Positions 29,449 through 45,777 of a stretch of 64,000 nucleotides of DNA are shown in pieces. Location: assembly GCF_048403405.1 (NCBI RefSeq), contig NZ_CP183129.1; one strand, written 5' to 3'. Each line of letters starts with the position of its first letter. The stretch's first letter is position 1. Below the pieces are notes generated by a model. That model did not search any database and was not told where the DNA came from. It worked only from the letters and a program-made list of their open reading frames with translations. This DNA comes from Escherichia coli. GTDB lineage: Bacteria; Pseudomonadota; Gammaproteobacteria; Enterobacterales; Enterobacteriaceae. The translations under genes and the position numbers were made by a program.

Positions 29449-31622
<2,174 letters not shown>

Positions 31623-31720
31623 TACGTATCCTTATACCTGAAATCTTCGCAAGTATGCCTGGCCGCGAGATTATGGCACACTTGTCCGGTTAACTCTCGT
31701 CTCATACAGGTAACACAAAC

Positions 31721-31765
31721 GTGAAAATCCTTGTTGATGAAAAAAATGATGACTTAATTTATTGA
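31721..31765 (+). pseudogene. pdxB: Probable 5' remnant of pdxB (first ~7 codons, then a stop)
   Basis: GTG AAA ATC CTT GTT GAT GAA reads VKILVDE, resembling the PdxB N-terminus MKILVDENMPYA recalled from K-12, then diverges into AT-rich sequence and stops after 14 codons. Confidence 0.4.
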
Positions 31766-31819
31766 TGTAAAAGGATTTATGTCAGCGCGTGTCCACGCAG
31801 TGACCACATTTTCGAGTTA

Positions 31820-31861
31820 CAGATAACACAAAGCCCGTTTTCACGGGCTTTGTGTTATCTG
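31820..31861. other. Perfect 18-bp-stem hairpin just inside the element junction
   Basis: CAGATAACACAAAGCCCG-tttt ca-CGGGCTTTGTGTTATCTG, exact reverse-complement arms; lies 30 nt downstream of the stop of the 31891-32784 gene. Confidence 0.8.
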
Positions 31862-31890
31862 TGATTGTGGCTAAGCCACATGATTTAATA

Positions 31891-32784
31891 CTATTTCCAG
31901 TTACAAGCAGCTTGAAGCGGTTTTAGCGCGTTTGACAGGCCGTTTAAATTGAAAGTTGCACTTACGGGGCTCTCATTATAAGGCGTTATTTTTGTATACA
32001 TTTTGCTTGAGTTGGCTAGTTTTCGGATGAAATCAATGTCATTACCTTTATAAAAAACAGCCTTTGTATCTGTAGATACTAGCCAGTTTCGCTCAACTGC
32101 TTTCTGTTTATCAAGGCGATAAAGCATGCTGGTTTGTTCAAGGCCTAAATATACATCCCAACTAAGAAATACTTCGGTTTTCTTTTCTCGGCAAGCTATA
32201 AAAAGAGTAGGAGTAACCGCTTCTCCAAATGGAGTTCTGATATAATCATCACTTTCTAACGATAAAATTACATTTTTCGAATCATCAATTGGCGATGTAG
32301 TAATGGATGTGTGCCATTTTCCTACATCTGTGGCTTTCTCTAATTTTGATTCAGCTTGAGCGATTTTATCCTGTGGGAATAGTTTATCGTAGCAGTTTAG
32401 TCTGGCTTCTTTATCATTTTCTGCACGACATTTAGATATCTCAGAAAGATTTGGTTGCTGAGCCTCTGTTGTTACTGGCTTTTCCGTTTTAGATTTTGAG
32501 TTTACAGATGGAGTAAATGTTGGAGAAAAGAAACGATCATAACAAGATAAACGTCTATCATCATCTTTCTCATCAGGGCATTGATCTCTGCTTTCGAATT
32601 TTTCAGCAACTTTCGTTCGAGTCGGTTGTATTGACTTATCGTAACAAGAAAGTCTGTCTTTATTATTTTCTATTGCTCGGCACTGGAGTACTGCATTGAA
32701 GTTCTTATGTTCAGTTGCTGCTTGAACAGGCAGTACACTAATTGATATAAATGATGCACCTATAGAAAAAATTATATTTTTCAT
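31891..32784 (-). CDS. AT-rich secreted protein with three Cys-Tyr-Asp repeat motifs, unknown function
   Basis: 297-aa ORF with signal peptide (MKNIIFSIGASFISISVLPVQA) and three repeats RLSCYDK / RLSCYDR / RLNCYDK; visibly AT-rich. Confidence 0.7.
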   Translation of the reverse strand: MKNIIFSIGASFISISVLPVQAATEHKNFNAVLQCRAIENNKDRLSCYDKSIQPTRTKVAEKFESRDQCPDEKDDDRRLSCYDRFFSPTFTPSVNSKSKTEKPVTTEAQQPNLSEISKCRAENDKEARLNCYDKLFPQDKIAQAESKLEKATDVGKWHTSITTSPIDDSKNVILSLESDDYIRTPFGEAVTPTLFIACREKKTEVFLSWDVYLGLEQTSMLYRLDKQKAVERNWLVSTDTKAVFYKGNDIDFIRKLANSSKMYTKITPYNESPVSATFNLNGLSNALKPLQAACNWK

Positions 32785-32788
32785 TTTA

Positions 32789-33121
32789 TTATCCCTTTGG
32801 TTTAGTAAGAAATACTAAAATTCCGATAATGATATCGCCAATAACCCATAAGCTTCCAATGGTAATTAAACCTAAGCCTGTACCAATAACTGCACCGGCT
32901 TTTTCGGCATCGGATGTGGCATTATTTATTATTTCACTAGTGCCTCCTAGTCCAACTAAAAGCGTATAGATCATAAAAATATTAAATAATATAAAAACCC
33001 ACTTAATGATCCGTCCAAAAAATGAACGCTTAAGTTTTTGCAGTTGTTTACCACAAGCAGGGCAATACAATGCTGAATCGCTCACCTCTTTCTGGCATTC
33101 AGGACATTTGATTAATGCCAT
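32789..33121 (-). CDS. Zinc-ribbon membrane protein, unknown function
   Basis: 110-aa ORF with N-terminal CPEC-x12-CPAC zinc ribbon and two hydrophobic helices; 4 nt upstream of the repeat-protein gene, forming an operon. Confidence 0.65.
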   Translation of the reverse strand: MALIKCPECQKEVSDSALYCPACGKQLQKLKRSFFGRIIKWVFILFNIFMIYTLLVGLGGTSEIINNATSDAEKAGAVIGTGLGLITIGSLWVIGDIIIGILVFLTKPKG

Positions 33122-33383
33122 GTAATCCGCCTCCTTTGGATTAATACGAGTTGATATTTGTTACAAAACATTTTGATTTTATCAGATTTATTTTTATTGA
33201 TAAGTGTCAATTGATTAGCTGGTATAGAGTGAGGCATATAGAAGGGCTGGTCTGTATCAGTATGTGATGCAAAAATCCCACAGTTTCATGGAATTTTTGC
33301 ATTTAGAGCTGTGAGATAGGGTGCCTTATCGACCTTACCCTGGCAACCGATTGACGGGGGATTACTCCCCCGTCGCGGTTTCC

Positions 33384-33524
33384 TTACTGCTTACACTGTA
33401 AGAACGCCGCAAACTCCGCTCCCCAGAAGCTCATCCGTATTTCACACAGCGAACCGTGCAGCATCCAGATGATGAGGATTACCGTCACGCAGAACGTGAT
33501 GGCCGTAAGCGATTTTTGCGACAT
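33384..33524 (-). CDS. Hok/Gef-family type I toxin-like small membrane protein
   Basis: 46-aa ORF MSQKSLTAITFCVTVILIIWMLHGSLCEIRMSFWGAEFAAFLQCKQ with AAGGAG 7 nt upstream; carries the Hok signature SLCEIR-6 residues-E-x-AAF after a TM helix. Confidence 0.6.
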   Translation of the reverse strand: MSQKSLTAITFCVTVILIIWMLHGSLCEIRMSFWGAEFAAFLQCKQ

Positions 33525-33714
33525 AGCGCTTGCTCCTTTTTCGGGGAGGCGCTAACCTATCACTTGCTTAGGGTAGACGGTTAGGGCCTCGGTTAAACAA
33601 AAGTGTTTTCCGGGGCCTTTCCACATCCGGCCATCGGGTATTCCCTCCGACCATCAGCCGAAAGGCACCCGCGCGTAATCTATCGCTTTTTTGTTACTCC
33701 GGCAATTCTGCCTG

Positions 33715-33975
33715 TTAATTCTGAGGTAAAGGCAAACTCATCTGATTGTTTCCCCTGTGTGAAGCTGGCAGCTCATGCCACGGGATACCTTCTGAAGAGT
33801 GAACGCCGGAGGCGTGTTTTGATGTGAATTTATGGAAGGCTTCCAGTGTTGAGAAGCATACGCCGCATTCCAGATTGTTACACTGGTAATACTTTTGCCG
33901 CACGGTGTTTGAATCATTTTCCGGACGACTGGTGCGGATACGGGCAGATGCGCCACAAAGCGGACAACGGAACAT
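33715..33975 (-). CDS. ogr: Ogr/Delta-family zinc-finger late transcription activator
   Basis: N-terminus MFRCPLCGASARIRTSR with a second Cys pair (CNNLECGVC), as in P2 Ogr. Confidence 0.85.
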   Translation of the reverse strand: MFRCPLCGASARIRTSRPENDSNTVRQKYYQCNNLECGVCFSTLEAFHKFTSKHASGVHSSEGIPWHELPASHRGNNQMSLPLPQN

Positions 33976-34017
33976 AGCGACCTCCCTTAACGTGGTGCTG
34001 CCGCTATTCTAAGTTGC

Positions 34018-35127
34018 TCACTCTGTTTCCGCTATCCATTCCGGGATTTTTGCCTCAAGCTCAAGCTGCGTGGTAAAGCCGCTGTTATCAATAGTGTGCT
34101 CGGCTTTTGCAATGATCCAGTCCTGATTATCAATCTCGCTTTTAAATCCTGTTACCGTACCATGCATTTCGGGGTAGAGTTCTGCACGTCCACGCGCCAG
34201 CGTGATGGAGAATGATGCGGCTCCGCGTTGTAGTTGCTGCCACTTTGCCGCCGCTGCGCGTCTTGCTGCCTGTTCGTTCTGATAGGTCTTGCGTAACACA
34301 AACACATTGCCTTCCGCGCCTTCCATATAATCACCTTCACGGCTGCTGCTTTTCTCCTTTTGGGGTTTTGGTGGTTTGCGGCGTTTCACGCTGACTTTTT
34401 TCTTTTCCCCGTAATTAAGATCAAGCCAGTAGGCGCGTACCCCCGTATACGCCTCGCGGTCAGCAATACGGAACTGATGGCGATCGCCGCTGCTGCGTGT
34501 AATGGCGAACGAGGGCAACGGCTGGCCCTGTGCGTTCACGCCACCACCTGGCATGATGAATAACAGATTGCCGCTTTTTACCGTGGTGATTGCGCCCAGC
34601 ATTTCCGCCATGCGCGTAAGGAAGGACATGTCGCTTTCTTCGGTCTGGTCGGCGTGGTCGATTTCGATATCCATCAGCATTTCGCTGATTTGTGGTTTCA
34701 GACCATACCGATGAGCGATGGCGGATACCACACGCTCAACGGTCACATCATGCCAGGACACCTCACGTTTAACGTTAAATTCATCCCGAAAATCTGCGCT
34801 TCTGGCTGAAACAGTCAGCCTGTCCGGCGGTCCTTCGTGAGCGATTTCATCAACAATGTAAGTGCCTTTTTCTGTCAGCGGTTCTCCTTTCCAGCCAATG
34901 AGAACCGTCAGGCGCGCGCCCCGTGGCGGTAGCTGCAACTGACCATCCGCATCATCCAGCGTGATGGTGAGCTGGTCCGCCTCAAATCCCCGGTTGTCGG
35001 TCAGTGACAGGCTCATCAGGCGCTCTGCCACGCCTGACAGCGTTTTACCCTCCGCGAGAATATCAAAATCCGGCATTTTCACGGGGTCTGTGCCCTGACT
35101 GAGCAATTGCATGGTGGTGTCGGTCAT
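34018..35127 (-). CDS. D: Phage tail protein D (late control gene D family)
   Basis: ATG at 35127 preceded by GGGAGGGAA; about 370 aa, gpD-like; the track ORF is extended 44 codons upstream. Confidence 0.8.
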   Translation of the reverse strand: MTDTTMQLLSQGTDPVKMPDFDILAEGKTLSGVAERLMSLSLTDNRGFEADQLTITLDDADGQLQLPPRGARLTVLIGWKGEPLTEKGTYIVDEIAHEGPPDRLTVSARSADFRDEFNVKREVSWHDVTVERVVSAIAHRYGLKPQISEMLMDIEIDHADQTEESDMSFLTRMAEMLGAITTVKSGNLLFIMPGGGVNAQGQPLPSFAITRSSGDRHQFRIADREAYTGVRAYWLDLNYGEKKKVSVKRRKPPKPQKEKSSSREGDYMEGAEGNVFVLRKTYQNEQAARRAAAAKWQQLQRGAASFSITLARGRAELYPEMHGTVTGFKSEIDNQDWIIAKAEHTIDNSGFTTQLELEAKIPEWIAETE

Positions 35128-35284
35128 CTGTTCCCTCCCTGTGCGGCATGGTCGCATGTGCGTGCGGAGGGGGTTACTGCTTTTTGTTGTCGCCGGGTCG
35201 GGAGAACGGCGCAGGGGTGAGATTACGCGCGTGGTGGGTGATGATTGTTGCCGAATCATTTAACGGATACAAGGGGCTGAAGCT

Positions 35285-36469
35285 ATGAGTGAAACTCGTT
35301 TTCATGGTGCCCGTGTTACGGAAAATACCGACCTGGTAACAGCGATTAACGATGTTGATTCCAGCGTTATCGGTATCGTGGCAACGGCGGATGATGCGGA
35401 CGCGAAGCTGTTCCCGCTGAATAAGCCCACACTGCTGACCCGCGTCAATGACGTGCTGGGAAAATGCGGGACAACGGGGACGCTTTATCGTGCGCTTAAG
35501 GCCATCGCAGACCAGGTGAGCACAAAGGTGATCGTCGTTCGCGTGGCTGAACACAAAGAAGAAGACGGAAAGACGCAGGATCAACTGGTTATCGGTGGTT
35601 CTGAGGATGACGGCAGCTATACGGGGATGTATGCGCTGCTTGTTGCAGAGCAGGATGAAAGCATCGGATACCGTCCGCGTATTCTGGCCGCGCCGGAGCT
35701 GGACACGGAGGCTGTAACAAAATCCCTGTGCGTGATTGCAGGTAAACTGCGCGCGTTTGTGTATGCCTCATGTCACGGCTGTAACACGATGGCTGAGGCG
35801 ATTACCTACCGCCAGAAATTCAACGAACGTGAGGTGATGCTCTTATGGCCGGACTTCATCGCCTACAACCCGAAAAGTGGCAAAAACGAAACGTTCCCCG
35901 CGCCTGCCTATGCGTGCGGCCTTCGTGCGTACATTGACCATGAGCAGGGCTGGCACAAATCGCTGTCCAACGTTCCGGTTAAAAATGTGCTGGGAATGTC
36001 CAGGCATGTGTTCTGGTCGTTGCAGGCCGAAGACAGCGATGCCAACAGCCTCAACAACAAAGAAATCACGACCATTATTCGTCGCAACGGGTTCCGCTTC
36101 TGGGGCAACCGCACACCGGAAACGAACGCCTACATCTTTGAGGTGTATACCCGAACCGCACAGGTGCTGGCTGATTCAATTGCGGAAGCGCAGTTTGAAA
36201 CCATCGACAGTCCACTGACACCTGCGAACGTGAAGGATGTTATCAGCGCCATCAGGGCAAAACTGGATTCGCTGGTTACTGCCGGGAAACTGATTGGTGT
36301 GGAGTGCTGGTATGACGTGGTGGATAACGGCACCACGAATTTACGTCAGGGACGTGTGCGTATTCGCTACAAATATACGCCTGTTCCCCCGCTGGAAGAC
36401 ATGGAGCTTTACCAGACGTTTACTGATGAATTCTTTGGTCCCGCATTTGCGGTGCTGGGAGGTGCCTGA
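35285..36469 (+). CDS. FI: Contractile tail sheath protein FI
   Basis: 394-aa product of P2 FI size; followed by tube, E/E', tape measure and U in P2 order. Confidence 0.85.
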   Translation: MSETRFHGARVTENTDLVTAINDVDSSVIGIVATADDADAKLFPLNKPTLLTRVNDVLGKCGTTGTLYRALKAIADQVSTKVIVVRVAEHKEEDGKTQDQLVIGGSEDDGSYTGMYALLVAEQDESIGYRPRILAAPELDTEAVTKSLCVIAGKLRAFVYASCHGCNTMAEAITYRQKFNEREVMLLWPDFIAYNPKSGKNETFPAPAYACGLRAYIDHEQGWHKSLSNVPVKNVLGMSRHVFWSLQAEDSDANSLNNKEITTIIRRNGFRFWGNRTPETNAYIFEVYTRTAQVLADSIAEAQFETIDSPLTPANVKDVISAIRAKLDSLVTAGKLIGVECWYDVVDNGTTNLRQGRVRIRYKYTPVPPLEDMELYQTFTDEFFGPAFAVLGGA

Positions 36470-36981
36470 TGGCTGTACCAAAACATCTTCGCTTTTTTAC
36501 GTTGTTTGTGGATGGTGAAAACGAAGTGGGTAAAGTGACATCCGTCACGCCGCCCAAACTGACGCGCAAAACCGACAGCTATCGTGGTGGTGGCATGATG
36601 GGGGCGGTAAGTATTGATCTCGGTCTGGACGACTCCGCGCTTGATGCGAGTTTTGTCATGGGGGGAGCTGTTCGTGCGCTGTTCCTTAAATATGGCGGCA
36701 CGATTGACGGCACGCTGCTGCGTTTTGCGGGTGAATACTACACCGATGCAGAAAGCGATCTGTATGAAATCGAGATGCGCGGGCGTGTGACGGAAATTGA
36801 TATGGGGGAAGCCAAACAGGGCGAAGCCACATCACACACTTACGCTGTCAAAAACACCTACTACAAGCTGAGCGTTAACGATCGCCCGCTGTGGGAAATC
36901 GACCTGTTGAACCACATCTACCGGAAGGACGGCAAGGACATTGTGCCTGACCGTATCCGTTCCGCGCTTGGGCTTGGCTGA
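36469..36981 (+). CDS. FII: Tail tube protein FII
   Basis: 170-aa product; start overlaps the FI stop (TGATG). Confidence 0.85.
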   Translation: MAVPKHLRFFTLFVDGENEVGKVTSVTPPKLTRKTDSYRGGGMMGAVSIDLGLDDSALDASFVMGGAVRALFLKYGGTIDGTLLRFAGEYYTDAESDLYEIEMRGRVTEIDMGEAKQGEATSHTYAVKNTYYKLSVNDRPLWEIDLLNHIYRKDGKDIVPDRIRSALGLG

Positions 36982-37036
36982 TAAGTAATATGCAGGCGGC
37001 GCAGTGCGTCGCCTCTGACTGAAAAGGAGACAACTG

Positions 37037-37411
37037 ATGAAAGACATCGATACTGAAACCCGGAATAACACCGTGGCGGATGATGTGACGGCAGGTGAGG
37101 ATATGGCTGTCGAACGTGGCGTAAAACTGACCCGACCAATTGAGCGTGGTGGCGAAAAAATCACGTATGTGGAGATCACCGGGGCTATTGAGCAGGCTGG
37201 ATCCCTGCGTGGTCTGTCGCTGTCTGATGTGCTGAATCTGAAAGCGGATACCATGTTTACGCTGTTGCCTCGCGTGACCTCGCCACGACTGGATGAAGTG
37301 ATGATTAAAAAAATGTCGTCACGCGATTTTATTCAGTTGTGCGCTGTGGCTGTAAATTTTATGAGCGAGCCAGACTCTGGCGCGAAGAGCGTGCAGGAGA
37401 CGGCAGCGTAA
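37037..37411 (+). CDS. E: Tail assembly chaperone E
   Basis: 124-aa ORF with AAAGGAG upstream; an overlapping -1 frame ORF follows, the E/E' arrangement of P2-type tail chaperones. Confidence 0.75.
   Translation: MKDIDTETRNNTVADDVTAGEDMAVERGVKLTRPIERGGEKITYVEITGAIEQAGSLRGLSLSDVLNLKADTMFTLLPRVTSPRLDEVMIKKMSSRDFIQLCAVAVNFMSEPDSGAKSVQETAA
37307..37313 (+). promoter_or_regulatory. Candidate -1 programmed frameshift site (A7 run) for E+E'
   Basis: AAA AAA A in the E frame. The -1 frame has a TAA at 37306-37308 and is open from 37309 to 37575, so slippage on Lys codons would fuse E (to ...VMIKK) to the E' extension. Confidence 0.5.
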
Positions 37412-37575
37412 TCACCCTGGTGTGCTTTGAGCACATCGAAGATCTGGTGGCGGATATTGCCGCCATTTTTAACTGGTCGCCCGCCGAAATCTTCATGATG
37501 ACGCCCGGCGAAGTGGTTAGCTGGCGCGAGCGGGCGGCACTTCGCAGCGGGAATGCAGATAATGAAGACTCTTGA
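37309..37575 (+). CDS. E' extension (-1 frame) of the tail chaperone, expressed only by frameshifting
   Basis: Open -1 frame with no own start or RBS context; ends at a TGA overlapping the start of T. Confidence 0.55.
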   Translation, partial: KNVVTRFYSVVRCGCKFYERARLWREERAGDGSVITLVCFEHIEDLVADIAAIFNWSPAEIFMMTPGEVVSWRERAALRSGNADNEDS

Positions 37576-40369
37576 TATCCGGGTCGCTTTCAGCGCCGTT
37601 GACAGGCTGACCCGGCCTGCCGAAAACGCCCGCCGCCTGATGGGGCAGTTTGGTGACTCCATCCAGCGAACGCAGGGGGCGATCAAAAATCTCGAGCGTC
37701 AGGCGCGTTCATTTGAGCGCGCCCGTGACGCTGTCAGTAAAGCGGATGCTGGCATCGTGAAAGCACGACGCCAGCTTAACGCCCTTAATCAGTTACAACG
37801 CACGGGTACAGTGCTCAGCGAAAAACAACAAAAGCTGATGCAGCAGTTAAGCACCCGGCTTGAACGCCTGAATGAATCGCGCACACGGGAAATTCAGAAA
37901 ATGCGGGAGCTTGGCGGAGAGCTGAAACGCCACGGCATTTCCCTGACAGGCAGCGATAACACCATCCAGCAGGCCATCAGACGCACCGAACAGTACAACA
38001 ACCAGCTTGAACGCGAACGGCAGGCGCTTGCGCGTGTAACGCGGGCGCGTGAGCGGTATTCGCGCGCGCAGGAAACAGCGGGAAAACTGAAAACAGGTGG
38101 TGCGCTGGCAATTGGTGCGGCAGCGGCGGGCGGCTATGCTGCCGGGCGTTTTTTGCAGCCTGCGATCGGGTTCGGCAAAGAGATGTCCCGCGTTCAGGCA
38201 CTGACGCGAATCGACCAGAACAGCCCGCAGTTTAAGGCGCTGCGTGAGCAGGCGTTAAAACTTGGCTCTGAAACGCAGTTCACCGCAGGCGATGCCGCCA
38301 GTGGACAGGCATTTCTTGCAATGGCTGGCTTCACTCCGCAGGCCATTCAGGCTGCGCTTCCCGGCGTGCTGAGCATGGCAACGGCTGGCGGTATGGATCT
38401 CGGCGAGACGGCAGATATTGGCTCAAATATCCTGACGCAGTTCGGCCTTTCTGCTGACCAGATGGACCGGGTCGGTGACACACTCACCGCAGCGTTTACC
38501 CGTACCAACACTGACCTTCGCGCACTGGGCGAAACCATGAAATATGCAGGTCCGGTGGCGGGTAAGCTGGGAATATCGCTGGAGCAGGCCGCAGCGATGG
38601 CTGGCGTGCTGGCGAATATGGGCATCAGAGGGAGTGATGCCGGGACGGCAATGCGTGCCAGCCTGGCTCGTCTGGCATCACCGCCAAAGGCGGCGGCAGA
38701 AGCTCTGAAAGAGCTGGGCGTGTCCGTCTCGGATGCCGGGGGCAAAATGCGCCCGATGGAGGATGTGCTGGCCGACCTTTATAAAGCCACCCGTAAATAC
38801 GGGGAAGTTGACCGGGTATCGTTCTTTAAGGACATTGCCGGAGAAGAGGCTTTCACATCGTTTATGGCGCTCGTTGATGCAGCGGGTGACGGTTCCTTAC
38901 CCAAACTGAGAAAAGAACTTGAAGGCGCGCGCGGTGAGGCTGAACGCACAGCAAAGGTTATGGCCAACAACCTTGACGGCGATCTGAAATCACTCGGCAG
39001 TGCATGGGAAGGGTTGCGCATCCGCATTGCAGATCTGATTGACGGTCCGCTGCGTTCTGTCACGCAGTGGCTCACGCGGGTGGTCTCAAAAGTGACGGCA
39101 CTGGCGCAGGCCCATCCGGCACTGACGCGCCAGTTACTGATAGCGGGAGGTGCACTGCTGGCGACAACAGCAACGGTTGGTTCGTTGTCTCTGGTTATTG
39201 GGGTGCTTCACGGGAAGCTGGCTACGTTACGTCTCGGTTTTTCTCTCCTGACCGGATCAATGAATGCTGTCAGGGGCCTGCCAGCACTATGGGGAATGGT
39301 GACGGGTTCCGTTTCTTTACTGGGAGGCGCTATCGGGGCGCTGATCAGTCCGGTTGGTCTTATCGTGGCTGCGCTTGCCGGAGCTGCCGTTCTTATCTGG
39401 AAATACTGGGATCCCATCAGGGCATTTTTTGCCGGGGTGTTCAGCGGGATTATGGAAAGGCTGACCCCGTTGCGCGAAACCTTTGAACGGTTTGGTCCTG
39501 TTTTTGACGCAATCGGAAGCGGGATCAGCCAGGTGTTTAACTGGTTTAAATCGCTGCTGTCACCGATGGAGTCCAGCAAGGAAACGCTGGATAAATGTAC
39601 CAGTGCTGGCGAGATATTCGGTAACGTTCTTGGCGGTGCGTTACAGCTTGTTCTGACACCTGCAAAAATGCTACTGGATACGCTGGCGTGGATACTTGAA
39701 AAACTTGGCGTCCTTCCGGATGAAGCGGAAAAGGCGCGCAAGAAAATCGAAGACGCACAGCGTGCGGCCATTCTTCAGGACAAGGTTGCCTTGCTTCAGG
39801 GGGACCTTGCGAAAATCAATCCGCCGAAGCCTGTGGAAAATGGCAATGGCACCGGAGGTGATAAACCCAAAGACAACAAACCGCTCACAGACAGCAATAC
39901 CGGGACGCTACGCAGACTCAGCAAAATTGCTGATAACACAGGTAAGCTGGTTGATGAGACGAAAAAACGCATTGGCCCTGGCGATATTGTCTTTAAGAAC
40001 CTGCCCCGCGCACTTGCTGTTCGTGGGGAGTGGCAGGAGCGGAAGATTGCGCAGGTCAGTAAGCCTGCCCCCGCAATTAATATCACACCCGTAGTCCCGG
40101 CTCCGCTGCCTCCGGCGCTGGTCCCTGTTGTTGCGGCCAGCTCCCGCCCGGTGGCGGAGGCCATACGATCGCCAGTGGCATCAGTTCCTGCAGCTTCCCG
40201 TAATCGGGAGCCTGCTGTCTCCAGATTTGGCGGTGAAATTCATGTTCATCTGCATAACGTTGTTACGCAGAATCCCCGCGAACTGGCGAAACTGGTCGGT
40301 GAAATGGTCAGGGCAGAGATGGAACGGCGCGCCCGTGCCGGACGTGGCAGTTTTTACGATAAAGATTGA
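37553..40369 (+). CDS. T: Tail tape measure protein T
   Basis: 938-aa product with coiled-coil N-terminal half and Gly/Ala-rich hydrophobic central segments; the start could instead be the ATG at 37562. Confidence 0.85.
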   Translation: MQIMKTLDIRVAFSAVDRLTRPAENARRLMGQFGDSIQRTQGAIKNLERQARSFERARDAVSKADAGIVKARRQLNALNQLQRTGTVLSEKQQKLMQQLSTRLERLNESRTREIQKMRELGGELKRHGISLTGSDNTIQQAIRRTEQYNNQLERERQALARVTRARERYSRAQETAGKLKTGGALAIGAAAAGGYAAGRFLQPAIGFGKEMSRVQALTRIDQNSPQFKALREQALKLGSETQFTAGDAASGQAFLAMAGFTPQAIQAALPGVLSMATAGGMDLGETADIGSNILTQFGLSADQMDRVGDTLTAAFTRTNTDLRALGETMKYAGPVAGKLGISLEQAAAMAGVLANMGIRGSDAGTAMRASLARLASPPKAAAEALKELGVSVSDAGGKMRPMEDVLADLYKATRKYGEVDRVSFFKDIAGEEAFTSFMALVDAAGDGSLPKLRKELEGARGEAERTAKVMANNLDGDLKSLGSAWEGLRIRIADLIDGPLRSVTQWLTRVVSKVTALAQAHPALTRQLLIAGGALLATTATVGSLSLVIGVLHGKLATLRLGFSLLTGSMNAVRGLPALWGMVTGSVSLLGGAIGALISPVGLIVAALAGAAVLIWKYWDPIRAFFAGVFSGIMERLTPLRETFERFGPVFDAIGSGISQVFNWFKSLLSPMESSKETLDKCTSAGEIFGNVLGGALQLVLTPAKMLLDTLAWILEKLGVLPDEAEKARKKIEDAQRAAILQDKVALLQGDLAKINPPKPVENGNGTGGDKPKDNKPLTDSNTGTLRRLSKIADNTGKLVDETKKRIGPGDIVFKNLPRALAVRGEWQERKIAQVSKPAPAINITPVVPAPLPPALVPVVAASSRPVAEAIRSPVASVPAASRNREPAVSRFGGEIHVHLHNVVTQNPRELAKLVGEMVRAEMERRARAGRGSFYDKD

Positions 40370-40375
40370 GGAGTC

Positions 40376-40870
40376 ATGGTCATGATGATGATCTACGGCA
40401 TGTTTGTTTTTGAGCTGCGCACACTGCCGCATCAGCAGTTACAGCAAAACAAAAGCTGGCGGCATGTGAAAAATGAACGCGTTAACCGTTCAGCAAGCTG
40501 GCAGTATATAGGTGCAGGTGATGATCGCATTGTGCTTTCCGGCGTGCTTTATCCTGAAATTACAGGTGGCGAAGTGTCGCTTTCGTTGCTGACCACGCAG
40601 GCATATACAGGACGCCCCTGGCCTCTGATTGATGGTGTCGGGCAGATTTACGGCATGTATGTGCTGACTGAAACGAATACGACCCGTTCCGAGTTTGATC
40701 GCTACGGTAAGGCGAAAAAGATAGAATTTTCACTGACCCTTGAACGCTGTGATGAGGATTTGCGGGAGCGCCTGCAATCCTCATCATTCAGCGATATGCT
40801 GTCCGGCTTCAAAGATAAGGTGACATCATCTCTTAACAGCGCGGCCAGTTCAGTTAAAGGGCTGTTCTGA
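40376..40870 (+). CDS. U: Tail protein U
   Basis: 164-aa product (MVMMMIYGMFVFELRTLPHQQLQ...), gpU-like. Confidence 0.8.
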   Translation: MVMMMIYGMFVFELRTLPHQQLQQNKSWRHVKNERVNRSASWQYIGAGDDRIVLSGVLYPEITGGEVSLSLLTTQAYTGRPWPLIDGVGQIYGMYVLTETNTTRSEFDRYGKAKKIEFSLTLERCDEDLRERLQSSSFSDMLSGFKDKVTSSLNSAASSVKGLF

Positions 40871-40883
40871 TTTAACACAAAAA

Positions 40884-40916
40884 CCGCTAATGGTCAGATT
40901 AGCGGTTATTTTGTTT
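40884..40916. terminator. Terminator hairpin between convergent U and invertase genes
   Basis: CCGCTAAT-ggtcag-ATTAGCGG followed by TTATTTTGTTT on the plus strand, with a T-run also on the minus-strand side; overlaps the invertase stop. Confidence 0.65.
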
Positions 40917-41493
40917 CCTGACTCTTCTCTATTGTTCCGATTGATTCTCCTGCGGGGTGGTAACGATAAATCGTCGATATACCAATGCCGTAAATTATTG
41001 CCAGTTGTTTTCTGTCGTGCCCGTTTTTGATCAGCCTTGCTATTTGCTCATGCTGTTCTTTTGTCAGCTTCGGTCGACGTCCGCCTGTGCGCCCCCGTGC
41101 GCGTGCTGCCGCCAGTCCGGCCAGTGTACGTTCAACAATTAATTCACGTTCCATTTCAGCCAGGGCACCCATCACGTGGAAGAAAAAACGCCCCATTGGA
41201 GAAGATGTATCTATGCTGTCGGTCAGACTGCGAAAATTAATTCCTCGCTCCCGTAGTTCCCCGACGAGAGAAATCAGATGTTTCATGCTTCGCCCGAGGC
41301 GATCCAGTTTCCAGACAACCAGCGTGTCACCTTTTTGAAGGCGCTTTAAAGCGCGTTTTAATCCCGGTCGGTCTGTCTTTGTCCCGCTTAATTTATCTTC
41401 AAATATTTGTTCACATCCTGCACAAACAAGAGCGTTTCGTTGCAGGTCTGTATTCTGGTCATTTGTTGATACCCTTACATAGCCAATCAGCAC
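40906..41493 (-). CDS. pin: Serine DNA invertase (Hin/Gin/Cin/Pin family)
   Basis: GTG at 41493 gives MLIGYVRVSTNDQNTDLQRNAL... with the catalytic Ser in GYVRVST and a C-terminal HTH; the track ORF starts at TTG 41511. Confidence 0.9.
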   Translation of the reverse strand: MLIGYVRVSTNDQNTDLQRNALVCAGCEQIFEDKLSGTKTDRPGLKRALKRLQKGDTLVVWKLDRLGRSMKHLISLVGELRERGINFRSLTDSIDTSSPMGRFFFHVMGALAEMERELIVERTLAGLAAARARGRTGGRRPKLTKEQHEQIARLIKNGHDRKQLAIIYGIGISTIYRYHPAGESIGTIEKSQETK

Positions 41494-41547
41494 GCTGAAT
41501 CTCCCGTCCAAAAGCGCAAATCATGCCATGCAGGCCGGAAACGGCCA

Positions 41548-41575
41548 TTATCTAAAACCTCGGTTTACAGGAAAC
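41548..41575. other. gix/pix-type recombination site (left)
   Basis: TTATCTAAAACCTCGGTTTACAGGAAAC, differing at one base (position 6, T vs C) from the Mu gix sequence TTATCCAAAACCTCGGTTTACAGGAAAC as I recall it. Confidence 0.75.
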
Positions 41576-42581
41576 GGTAAACAAGGCTGGTAACGCCGTC
41601 CAAAAGACAGGCGATATCTTGTCCGGTGGGCTTACTTTTGAAAACGACTCAATCCTTGCCTGGATTCGGAATACTGACTGGGCAAAGATTGGTTTTAAAA
41701 ATGATGCCGACAGCGATACTGATTCATACATGTGGTTTGAAACAGGCGACAACGGCAATGAATATTTCAAATGGAGAAGCAAACAAAGCACCACAACAAA
41801 AGACCTGATGAATCTTAAATGGGATGCTTTGTCTGTTCTTGTTAAAGCCCTTTTCAGCAGTGAAGTAAAAATATCGACAGTCAATGCACTGAGGATATTT
41901 AATTCATCTTTTGGTGCTATTTTTCGCCGTTCTGAAGAATGCCTGCATATCATCCCGACACGAGAGAATGAGGGAGAAAATGGTGATATAGGGCCACTAC
42001 GCCCCTTTACGCTTAATCTCAGAACTGGTCGGATAAGCATGGGGCATGGTCTTGATGTTACAGGGGATATATTTGCAAACCGTTTTGCAATTAACAGTAG
42101 TACCGGCATGTGGATTCATATGCGTGACCAGAATGTTATTTTGGGACGCAATGCGGTATCCACCGATGGTGCACAGGCATTACTTCGTCAGGACCATGCT
42201 GATCGCAAATTTATGATTGGTGGGCTGGGAAATAAGCAATTTGGCATCTACATGATTAATAACTCAAGGACAGCTAATGGCACCGATGGTCAGGCGTACA
42301 TGGATAATAACGGGAACTGGCTTTGCGGTTCGCAAGTTATTCCCGGCAACTATGGCAATTTTGATTCCAGATATGTGAAAGATGTTCGACTTGGTTCACA
42401 GCAATATTATGGAGTGAACAACTGGCAAACATGGAATTTCCAGTGCCCGTCAGGTCATGTATTGTCTGGTATTAATGTTCAGGATACAGGGTCCAACTCT
42501 GCCGATAATATAGCGGGCGTTTATTACAGACCCGTTCAAAAGTATATAAATGGCACCTGGTATAATATAGCGAGCGTTTAA
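41576..42581 (+). CDS. Alternative tail-fiber C-terminal segment (Sv'-like), silent in this orientation
   Basis: Frame continues in phase through the left site ([14 protein letters not shown]...) and has a TAA inside the site, so there is no own start; ends [12 protein letters not shown] like the active fiber end. Confidence 0.7.
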
Positions 42582-43674: not shown

Positions 43675-45777
43675 TTAAATACTCCCCGCGTTATACCACG
43701 TCCCATTAATGCAATACTGAATTGGCCTTGCCTGAGTTGTATCAATTAATTCATCACGGTTTCCGTTAACTGAACCCGTAACGACATAACCTGACCTGTC
43801 AGACCAGCCGGGACCATTCCATGTCTGAACAGATGACAGACCGCCAAGGCGAATACCTGTAATAAACCTTGAGTTACATTCTGCCTGCGTGTATGCACCA
43901 ACATCTCCCGCTGAGGGTTTGCGGGTCGTGGTGTAAAACTCTGACCAGTCAGCTTCAAAGCCATAACCATCACGCGCTGAACGATAAAAAATGCCGCCGT
44001 TCCTGTAATTCACGCGGAACTGTACAGCAGGGCAACTCCCCGCATTCATATTGAAATGAAGAATTAACGTTGATGCGCCGGTGATTCTGGCGCAATAAAC
44101 TCCGCTGTTCCAGTTCCAGCCAACAGCTTTATCATTTCCGACAGTGCTTCCTGTTTGCCCTAAAGCAAATGCAGGTTGTTGATTTTTCGTGTTGTAGTCT
44201 CGTCGCCAGCCAGGAGCGTAAGCATCACCATGATTGATATAAGTGAATTGAGCGTTAGTAATTCCGCCACCGCTGGACGTGCTCGGCGTGGTAACGCGTA
44301 TGGTCATTGCGCCGCGAGTGCCAATAACTTCCACCACAGCACCTGCAAGACAAATATTTCCGCAACCTGTATCTGTAATGACCTTATTATTTGCATAAGC
44401 CCATGAGCCTTTGCACATCCAGTAAGGATGGTTAAATGCTCCCTGACTCTCCAGCCACGAAATAAATTGCGCGGTTGTCCAGACCTGACTATCGCCACCA
44501 ATATTCAGCCATGCGCTATATGCGCGGCAGGCACCAATATTTTTGGTGAAGGTATCTTTTCCTGGAATATCTGCGCCGTTCTGGTTTTTCTGTAATGCGC
44601 CAGAAGCCTGATTTACCGTTTCCTGTAAACCGAGGTATTCGATAACGGCAGCAACGGTCGATTTCGCAAGAATATCCCGCCCGACTTTTGTCAGGGTTGC
44701 CAGGCTGGCGACATCATTCCCCGTAAAATACGGAAACCTGTCTGCCGCAGTAGCAAGCCCGGCCAGCGCCGTCAGGGTGGCATCTTTCGGTTGCTTACCC
44801 GCAAGCGCTTTAGTCATGGTGGTCGCAAAATTCGGGTCGTTTCCCAGCGCCGCCGCTAACTCGTTCAACGTATTCAGTGCGTCAGGCGACGAGTCTACAA
44901 GTGCGGCAATCGCGGCCATCACATAAGCCGTGCTTGCGATCTGAGTATTATTAGTCCCTTTTGGCGCAGTTGGCGTTGTTGGCGTTCCGGTCAGTGCAGG
45001 ACTATTTAAGGGCGCTTTCTTGTTCGTTTCATCCATTACCGCCTTAACCGCTTTTGGCGTCGCAGCCAGCGTTTCAGATGTGCTGTTGGTGGCGCTACTG
45101 AGCTGAACTATCCCTTTTCGCGCAGTGGTAGCGTCCTGTGCGGTGTATTTGCCATTAGCCAGGTCATATGCCGCCTTAACAGCCTTTGGCGTTGCCGCAA
45201 GCGTTTCAGACGTGCTGTTAGTGGCGCTGCTAAGTTGAACAAAGCCTTTTGCGGTCAGCGAGGCGTCCGGGTGACGTCGTGAGTGTTCATGCTCTTTCAG
45301 TTTGTCATCCACGTAATCCACTGTGGCCATCACCATGGTGTTATCCACGGTAAGCGCCACGGTGGCAGTGCTGGATACGGTCAGAATGGTGCGAAATGTT
45401 TGTGCACGTCCTGACCCTTCGGCAACGGCTGGCTTGTAACTTTCGGCAGTATTGCCTACTGCGATTAAATCGCCGTGCTCATCAAACACACCAATTTCCC
45501 GGATCCAGAATCCGCCCGTTTCTGGAGGAATAACCAGCTCCGCAATAATGCGGTTCTGATGTGTTGCGTCCAGTATGACGCGATTAACAGTGTGTCGCCA
45601 CACCTCATGCACCAGACGGGTCTGCTTACTGTCTGGTGTGGGCAACGTGCCGCCACCGTCGCCCACGGCCATATGAGTCAGGCGGACAGGCTTACCATCT
45701 GGCGCGGCTGCCTGAGCTAATTTTTTTGCACCCGTATCGGTGATAACGGTTTTAAATTTTCGTGTTGTGGTACTCAT
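43675..45777 (-). CDS. H: Tail fiber protein H, with its C-terminal ~320 codons inside the invertible segment
   Basis: 700-aa ORF; reading frame passes through the right recombination site at residues [11 protein letters not shown]. Confidence 0.85.
44618..44645. other. gix/pix-type recombination site (right), inside the tail fiber gene
   Basis: GTTTCCTGTAAACCGAGGTATTCGATAA, the reverse complement of the left site with two mismatches. Confidence 0.75.
45041..45268. repeat. Tandem direct repeat (two copies of ~96 bp, 132-bp period) inside the tail fiber gene
   Basis: Encodes [23 protein letters not shown] twice, 44 aa apart. Confidence 0.8.

Follow-up and report, generated by a model that had tools for sequence, protein, structure and literature searches.

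The closest described system is that of bacteriophage P2, in which the E' frame is reportedly a −1 extension of E, reached at a shift frequency of about 10%, with E' being essential, as Christie and colleagues are said to have found in 2002. Poly-A slippery sites provide a second point of reference, and these include dnaX and IS911 (A AAA AAG in both cases) and IS600 (A AAA AAA), to which transcriptional slippage on A runs can be added. A third is the lambda G/GT frameshift, for which the sources are Levin et al. 1993 and Xu, Hendrix & Duda 2004. In the general scheme for tail assembly chaperones, the first ORF has an X XXY YYZ heptamer close to its end, on which an infrequent −1 shift sets a fixed ratio between a short and an extended version of the chaperone (PMC5009743). 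P2 E' is indeed described as being expressed as a −1 frameshift extension of E (PMC3091744), and the P2 RefSeq record NC_001895 annotates T TTT TTG as the −1 site for E/E'.

The locus considered here lies in a stretch of 64,000 nucleotides of Escherichia coli DNA, which we call the window, where the list of ORFs and their Pfam matches reveal a prophage tail operon in the order FI, FII, E, E', T, U. Judged from its sequence, the operon is of the P2 contractile-tail type and belongs to a P88-like prophage (Xuanwuvirus). Xuanwuvirus P88_4B11 and Citrobacter phage phiSM share 99.7% identity with the region and phage P88 itself 88-90%, while E. coli chromosomal prophages match it at 100%, and the prophage family is found in 1444 of 5426 complete E. 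coli genomes. The features that matter for what follows are these:

34018-35259, divergent, upstream of FI: the D gene
35285..36469, plus strand: FI, tail sheath, 394 aa (Pfam Phage_sheath_1, Gp18_domIII_N and Phage_sheath_1C)
36469..36981, plus strand: FII, tail tube, 170 aa (Pfam Phage_tube, E = 2.1e-45)
37037..37411, plus strand: E, tail assembly chaperone, 124 aa, zero frame (ORF, alignment to P2 gpE, phrog_103 and Phage_TAC_7)
37306..37308, plus strand: TAA of the −1 frame, after which the −1 ORF begins at 37309 (from the sequence; absent in ATC-bearing relatives)
37307..37313, plus strand: A7 run, comprising Lys91-Lys92 and the A of Met93; the slip site first suggested
37354..37360, plus strand: proposed heptamer A AAT TTT, with AAT (Asn107) in the P site and TTT (Phe108) in the A site
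37357..37363, plus strand: position of the P2-type heptamer, degenerate, T TTT ATG and not T TTT TTG (from alignments)
37360..37575, plus strand: E' part of the predicted fusion, −1 frame, 71 codons and TGA, the first codon being TAT (Tyr109)
37562..40369, plus strand: T, tape measure (Pfam PhageMin_Tail, E = 3.6e-58; start codon as called by PGAP in an identical E. coli locus)
40376..40870, plus strand: U, tail gene (Pfam Phage_P2_GpU, E = 5.5e-39)

Between the tube and tape measure genes there are thus two overlapping ORFs, the second of them in the −1 frame. Gene E has an AAGGAG ribosome-binding site 7 nt upstream and matches phrog_103, a 'tail protein' family, at E = 1e-36; its residues 29-109 also match Pfam Phage_TAC_7 (PF10109) at E = 4.7e-4, with a score of 20.6 bits that is under the cutoff of 25. 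The −1 ORF matches Pfam Phage_P2_GpE (PF06528) at E = 2.9e-12, with 46.3 bits against a cutoff of 23, and the start of T (ATG 37562) overlaps the end of E' by 14 nt. A P2-type FI-FII-E-E'-T-U operon leads one to expect an E+E' −1 fusion, and as a kind of feature the fusion put forward in the first-pass annotation stands, supported as it is by the operon, the Phage_P2_GpE domain and the homology to P2; what finds no support is the location that was given for the slip, namely the A7 run.

The likeness to P2 extends to most of what can be compared. In both phages E/E' is flanked by FII (tube) and T (tape measure), E has a TAC_7-like domain and E' a Phage_P2_GpE domain, E' overlaps the start of T, and the two E+E' fusions are 35% identical; the −1 shift, which for the window is predicted from sequence, would take place at the same invariant Phe codon that ends the chaperone domain. 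P2 slips on T TTT TTG with this Phe codon in the P site, whereas the window would use A AAT TTT with Phe in the A site, so that the window slip would come one codon earlier, and the position of the P2 heptamer has been mutated to T TTT ATG in the window. The unconserved tail of E after the site has 16 residues in the window versus 6 in P2, a linker some 20 residues longer joins the E and E' domains in the window, and the window is without the SD-like AAGGTGGT that precedes T6G in most P2-type loci. Gene order also differs, as the window D gene is divergent and upstream of FI whereas P2 D lies downstream of U, and the window D and ogr both diverge from FI, in contrast to the P2 order F-E-T-U-D-ogr. 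Lambda G/GT resembles the locus in having two overlapping ORFs just upstream of the tape measure gene, but window E/E' has no detectable sequence homology to lambda G/T, the lambda heptamer is G GGA AAG, and the window phage is contractile-tailed.

Where, then, would the ribosome slip? We think that the P2-type E/E' −1 shift most likely occurs at A AAT TTT (37354-37360), 47 bases downstream of the A7 run, and on the comparative evidence we put the probability of this at roughly 0.8. A AAT TTT is the sole in-phase X XXY YYZ heptamer in the E/E' overlap of the window. It is also found at the homologous position, with the annotated and experimentally mapped T TTT TTG of P2 aligning with AAT TTT ATG of the window (37355-37363) and V-G-F-L of P2 facing V-N-F-M; the G-F-L of P2 is spelled GGT TTT TTG, the N-F-M of the window AAT TTT ATG, and the codon for Phe108 is invariant in an alignment of 26 homologous fusions. 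When the E/E' overlaps of 80 loci of different species were scanned mechanically for heptamers, nearly every overlap had a single in-phase X XXY YYZ heptamer, which was mostly T TTT TTG, occasionally T TTT TTA/C and, in a Klebsiella/Enterobacter clade, C CCT TTC; all of these, as well as A AAT TTT, fall at the same Phe codon. The Pfam TAC_7 match ends at the slip site in both proteins (residues 29-109 of window E and 7-85 of P2 gpE). In an AlphaFold model of the fusion made at the heptamer (mean pLDDT 88.8, pTM 0.75), helix 95-111 runs unbroken across the junction, and a Foldseek search of this model against the PDB returned no match at E ≤ 0.001.

The usual heptamer of the family, T TTT TTG, is missing from the window, which has TTTTATG in its place, as do 78 of 85 related contigs, the other 7 having TTTTTTG. 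Because other canonical heptamers, such as C CCT TTC, can occupy the site, we take T TTT ATG to be a variant and not an exclusion. The P88 clade has A AAT TTT TTG, a sequence in which the two heptamers overlap and which so provides a path from one to the other without loss of function, and we consider it probable that the heptamer was replaced in situ, via an ancestor in which A AAT TTT TTG offered the two overlapping heptamers. This would amount to turnover of slippery sites at a fixed codon, with T TTT TTG, A AAT TTT and C CCT TTC all found at one invariant Phe. The Klebsiella and Enterobacter relatives of Reipivirus type (loci L003, L008, L009 and L095-L097) have neither the A7 run nor T TTT TTG and carry C CCT TTC at the Phe codon, which looks like an independent heptamer replacement; in them the open stretch of the −1 frame before the E stop measures 253 nt.

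How shifty these heptamers can be is apparent from the E. coli reporters of Sharma et al. 2014 (PMC4066793), in which the percentage of shifting was determined without a stimulator, with IS911 stimulators and with the IS3 pseudoknot. The values, in that order, were 0.07, 0.36 and 11.4% for A_AAU_UUU, 0.12, 0.25 and 0.77% for the P2-type U_UUU_UUG, and 0.19, 1.39 and 23.2% for C_CCU_UUC, and R_RR.U_UU.Y motifs were marked out as frameshift-prone in the same study (PMC4066793). The replacements can be called much shiftier than the ancestral motif in reporters, with the proviso that A_AAU_UUU without a stimulator stands at 0.07 against 0.12, and differences between heptamers could matter for setting the ratio of E to E+E'. 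The loss of T TTT TTG in the window's clade might mean that E+E' expression is reduced or altered. Citrobacter phage phiSM differs from the window at 2 of 539 nt, neither of them near the A7 run or the heptamer, and it is a viable, plaque-forming phage (PMC6456863). As a phage that forms plaques has the same slip region, the variant heptamer probably supports tail assembly, provided that E' is as essential here as it is in P2.

Upstream of the heptamer purifying selection acts on the E frame, downstream of it on the −1 frame. Between the A7 run and the heptamer, the differences between the window and P88 comprise 7 synonymous and 2 non-synonymous changes when read in the E frame; read in the −1 frame, there are 10 non-synonymous changes, a TGA among them, and none that is synonymous. 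From the heptamer to the E stop (counting from 37361) the E frame has 1 synonymous and 8 non-synonymous changes and the −1 frame 6 and 4, respectively (Fisher p = 0.015 and 0.011 for this comparison with P88). The contrast within the window's own clade goes in the same direction as that with P88: 78 contigs of the TTTTATG clade vary at ten sites in 37314-37354, of which 9 count as synonymous and 1 as non-synonymous when read in the E frame, versus 1 synonymous, 8 non-synonymous and 1 nonsense in the −1 frame (Fisher p = 0.001).

In the mechanism that we propose, most ribosomes would read E to its stop and produce the 124-aa chaperone, and a minority would slip back by one base on A AAT TTT (37354-37360), with the P-site tRNA-Asn moving from AAU to re-pair with AAA and the A-site tRNA-Phe moving from UUU to re-pair with UUU. 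The slipped ribosomes would then translate the −1 frame from TAT (37360) to TGA (37573-37575), and their product would be a 179-aa, 19.9-kDa E+E' fusion with the junction ...AVAVNF/YERARLWREER.... Lambda G/GT and P2 E/E+E' suggest, by analogy, that the E part may bind the tape measure T and that the E' domain may recruit tube and sheath for assembly. That slippage occurs here, how efficient it is and what the chaperone does are all things that we infer from the sequence. Were a single tRNA to slip on T TTT A (37357-37361), the protein made would be the same, and such a slip is inseparable from the tandem slip. The predicted tryptic peptides are DFIQLCAVAVNFYER for the junction at the heptamer, NVVTR, FYSVVR and CGCK for a junction at the A7 run, and DFIQLCAVAVNFMSEPDSGAK for plain E.

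Much of what had been said about the A7 run proved accurate. The run does lie inside gene E (37307-37313, where the E frame reads ATT AAA AAA ATG), the −1 frame does open there, since TAA at 37306-37308 closes it just before, and the 89 codons that had been counted consist of 88 sense codons (37309-37572) and TGA 37573-37575, overlapping the start of T. The idea that the slippery element is this poly-A tract is, however, made improbable by −1 stops in relatives, by the phase of the run, by the pattern of substitutions and by the loss of TAC_7 that it would entail. The run and its adjacent stop are no more than chance or coding would give. Counting both strands, the window has 28 A7 runs versus the 23.7 ± 6.0 expected from shuffles; this one is Lys-Lys-Met spelled with AAA, the preferred Lys codon of E. 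coli, and a −1 stop adjoins it because Ile90 uses the synonymous codon ATT, the P88 clade and locus L013 having ATC instead and hence no adjoining −1 stop. The phase is AAA AAA A, which is not the X XXZ ZZN arrangement that allows both tRNAs to re-pair; being out of phase, the run would force the P-site tRNA to re-pair with UAA, and it reduces to the tetramer A_AA.A. In composition it is similar to the known poly-A sites, and the same shifty tRNA-Lys would act on it, but unlike those sites it is out of phase and has no recognised stimulator, nor is it conserved with an open −1 frame, and the −1 frame that follows it is not under selection. On these comparisons the A7 run is probably an incidental coding feature of Lys-Lys-Met, with the functional slip site elsewhere.

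Might both sites be used, the heptamer for the conserved fusion and the A7 run for a minor isoform or a dead-end product that has no selected role? After each of them the −1 frame of the window is open, and slippage at a low level is a general property of A-rich runs in E. coli (PMC4066793). As the −1 frame of the window is open from the A7 run onwards, unlike that of P88, a minor product of this kind is physically possible, but there is no selection on the A7-specific residues and nothing supports a function for the A7 product, so that we regard such dual use as improbable. A version in which slip-site turnover is combined with dual use, E+E' being made from both A AAT TTT and the A7 run through slippage by the ribosome or by RNA polymerase, strikes us as more doubtful still; if it were true, there would be two isoforms that differ in 16 residues of the chaperone's last helix.

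We also think it very unlikely that the functional E+E' is made by a −1 shift on the A7 run in place of the heptamer, be it a ribosomal shift or an extra A added by RNA polymerase, which would yield a 179-aa fusion reading ...EVMIKK/NVVTRFYSVVRCGCKFYER.... The −1 frame of the window is open from 37309 to 37575, and tRNA-Lys is notoriously shifty on A runs, A_AA.A being among the six tetramers that shift above background in E. coli (Sharma 2014, PMC4066793). Nevertheless, A_AA.A is the weakest of those six active tetramers (PMC4066793), and it is the only tetramer type that applies to A7. The under-representation of A7 in genes, possibly via transcriptional slippage (Sharma 2014, PMC4066793), points in the same direction as the shifty tRNA, and the window's clade, which has neither T TTT TTG nor the −1 TGA of the P88 clade, could be read as having handed the shift over to A7. 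The P88 clade (P88, Chuche, 500465-2 and PhiR44_2), however, keeps ATC AAA AAA ATG and has its −1 TGA four codons later, so that a shift there would terminate at once, and of 539 E. coli genomes that carry the window's haplotype, 11 likewise have a −1 TGA after A7, O26:H11 str. 11368 among them. In those 11 genomes the TGA is due to 37324 C>T, a change that is silent in the E frame and is found in contigs of the window's haplotype too. Klebsiella relatives of Reipivirus type read ATC AAC GAA ATG and have no A run, and among the 80 species-level loci (of which the first 30 were inspected individually) A7 was seen at this place in E only in a P88-type locus. Furthermore, a fusion at A7 would remove the conserved last helix of the chaperone domain, with loss of the Pfam TAC_7 match, and the −1 codons of 37314-37354 evolve without constraint. 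A further candidate between the two sites, the U_UU.U tetramer at 37327-37330 (GAT TTT), was rejected, with P88 having the non-slippery GAC TTT and the −1 frame being unconstrained there.

That E' is instead made alone, with no fusion, from an internal start in the −1 frame (GTG 37420, giving 51 aa, or GTG 37339, giving 78 aa) seems to us very unlikely. In its favour, PGAP and the RefSeq phage records list a 'GpE family phage tail protein' as a CDS of its own that starts at the counterpart of GTG 37420, phrog_1756 is a model of a gene call of this kind, and the −1-frame codon at 37339 is a start codon in both the window (GTG) and P88 (ATG). Against it, the −1 frame of P2 is expressed as an extension of E (RefSeq annotation NC_001895; PMC3091744) and opens only 3 codons before its heptamer, neither GTG 37339 nor GTG 37420 has a Shine-Dalgarno sequence 5-10 nt upstream, and the starts are not conserved in Klebsiella, which has GTT and GGC at the two codons. 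Conservation of the −1 frame, visible as synonymous changes, sets in at the heptamer, some 57 nt before GTG 37420 is reached, and does not cover 37339-37354, where all four variant sites are non-synonymous in the −1 frame.

The weakest point in the case for the heptamer is that no convincing stimulator was found. A downstream stimulatory structure, which the first-pass annotation had wanted looked for, did not emerge as a significant or conserved element from folds, alignment consensus or Rfam. In a single-sequence fold, the best hairpin in the 60 nt after the heptamer reaches −19 kcal/mol, at a z-score of −0.46; among such folds for the window, P88, Klebsiella and P2, z ranged from −2.0 to 0, and the value of −2.0 belongs to a distal hairpin some 65 nt off. 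The consensus fold of five relatives (RNAalifold) came to −6.7 kcal/mol with negligible covariation, and an Rfam scan of 37000-37700 at E ≤ 1 returned chance snoRNA matches only. The P2 frameshift is likewise reported to lack a stimulatory element (PMC3091744). In most P2-type loci the SD-like AAGGTGGT stands just before T6G, where the window has only a weak GTGG. In most of loci L109-L171, which come from many species, a conserved SD-like (A/C)AGGTG(G/A)T is found about 4-11 nt upstream of T TTT TTG, immediately before it, and most of these P2-type loci also have a small GCCGA..TCGGY hairpin starting at +2 downstream of T TTT TTG; both the motif and the hairpin are absent from the window's clade. 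They could reflect coding constraints (G-K-V-V-G-F and A-E-F-G), or they could be unrecognised stimulators of the weak U_UUU_UUG.

The E/E' −1 frameshift is a known mechanism, and our knowledge of tail assembly or of frameshifting is unchanged by this finding; the point that is added is the variant heptamer in this clade. There is also a gain for annotation, in that what should most likely be annotated is a 179-aa E+E' fusion with its joint at 37360. In seven related public records (L001, L002, L004-L007 and L172) E' is annotated as an independent CDS of 51 aa, and ribosomal slippage is marked in none of them. RefSeq phage records also give the FII tail tube protein the name 'head closure'. 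Three IMG/VR contigs (L012-L014) were considered as natural in-frame fusions and rejected: in them single-base indels inside E or E' fuse or break the frames, neither candidate slip site is close to these indels, and the indels are probably homopolymer assembly errors. One of the three, L013, is mosaic, resembling P88 in its 5' half and the window in its 3' half.

Several minor observations concern the rest of the prophage. At its left end, with names taken from the PGAP annotation of an identical prophage, there is an ORF for a 46-aa toxin of the Hok/Gef family (33384-33524, minus strand), and a zinc-finger late activator of the ogr/Delta type (33715-33975, minus strand). In the interval 30000-34100 of the window the prophage adjoins flk, tagO and yfcJ together with a zinc-ribbon membrane protein, and its junction contains no tRNA. 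Strain 99-3165 has a prophage whose E-E' region is identical (100% over 564 nt) but which lies beside glyW-cysT-leuZ. A leuZ integration site, as in that strain, was considered for the window prophage and discarded, given the flk/yfcJ flank and a junction free of tRNA, and the different flanks imply that prophages sharing this tail region use at least two integration sites.

Beyond gene U, a serine invertase gene (Pfam Resolvase and HTH_7; 40906-41511, minus strand) adjoins inverted repeats of 62 nt at 41544-41605 and 44588-44649, which are 79% complementary and bracket about 3.1 kb. In an identical prophage the equivalent stretch of about 3.1 kb holds a promoterless cassette for the 3' part of a tail fibre gene and two opposed tail-fibre-assembly genes, and the invertase with its repeats looks like an invertible host-range switch of the Gin/Cin/Pin type.
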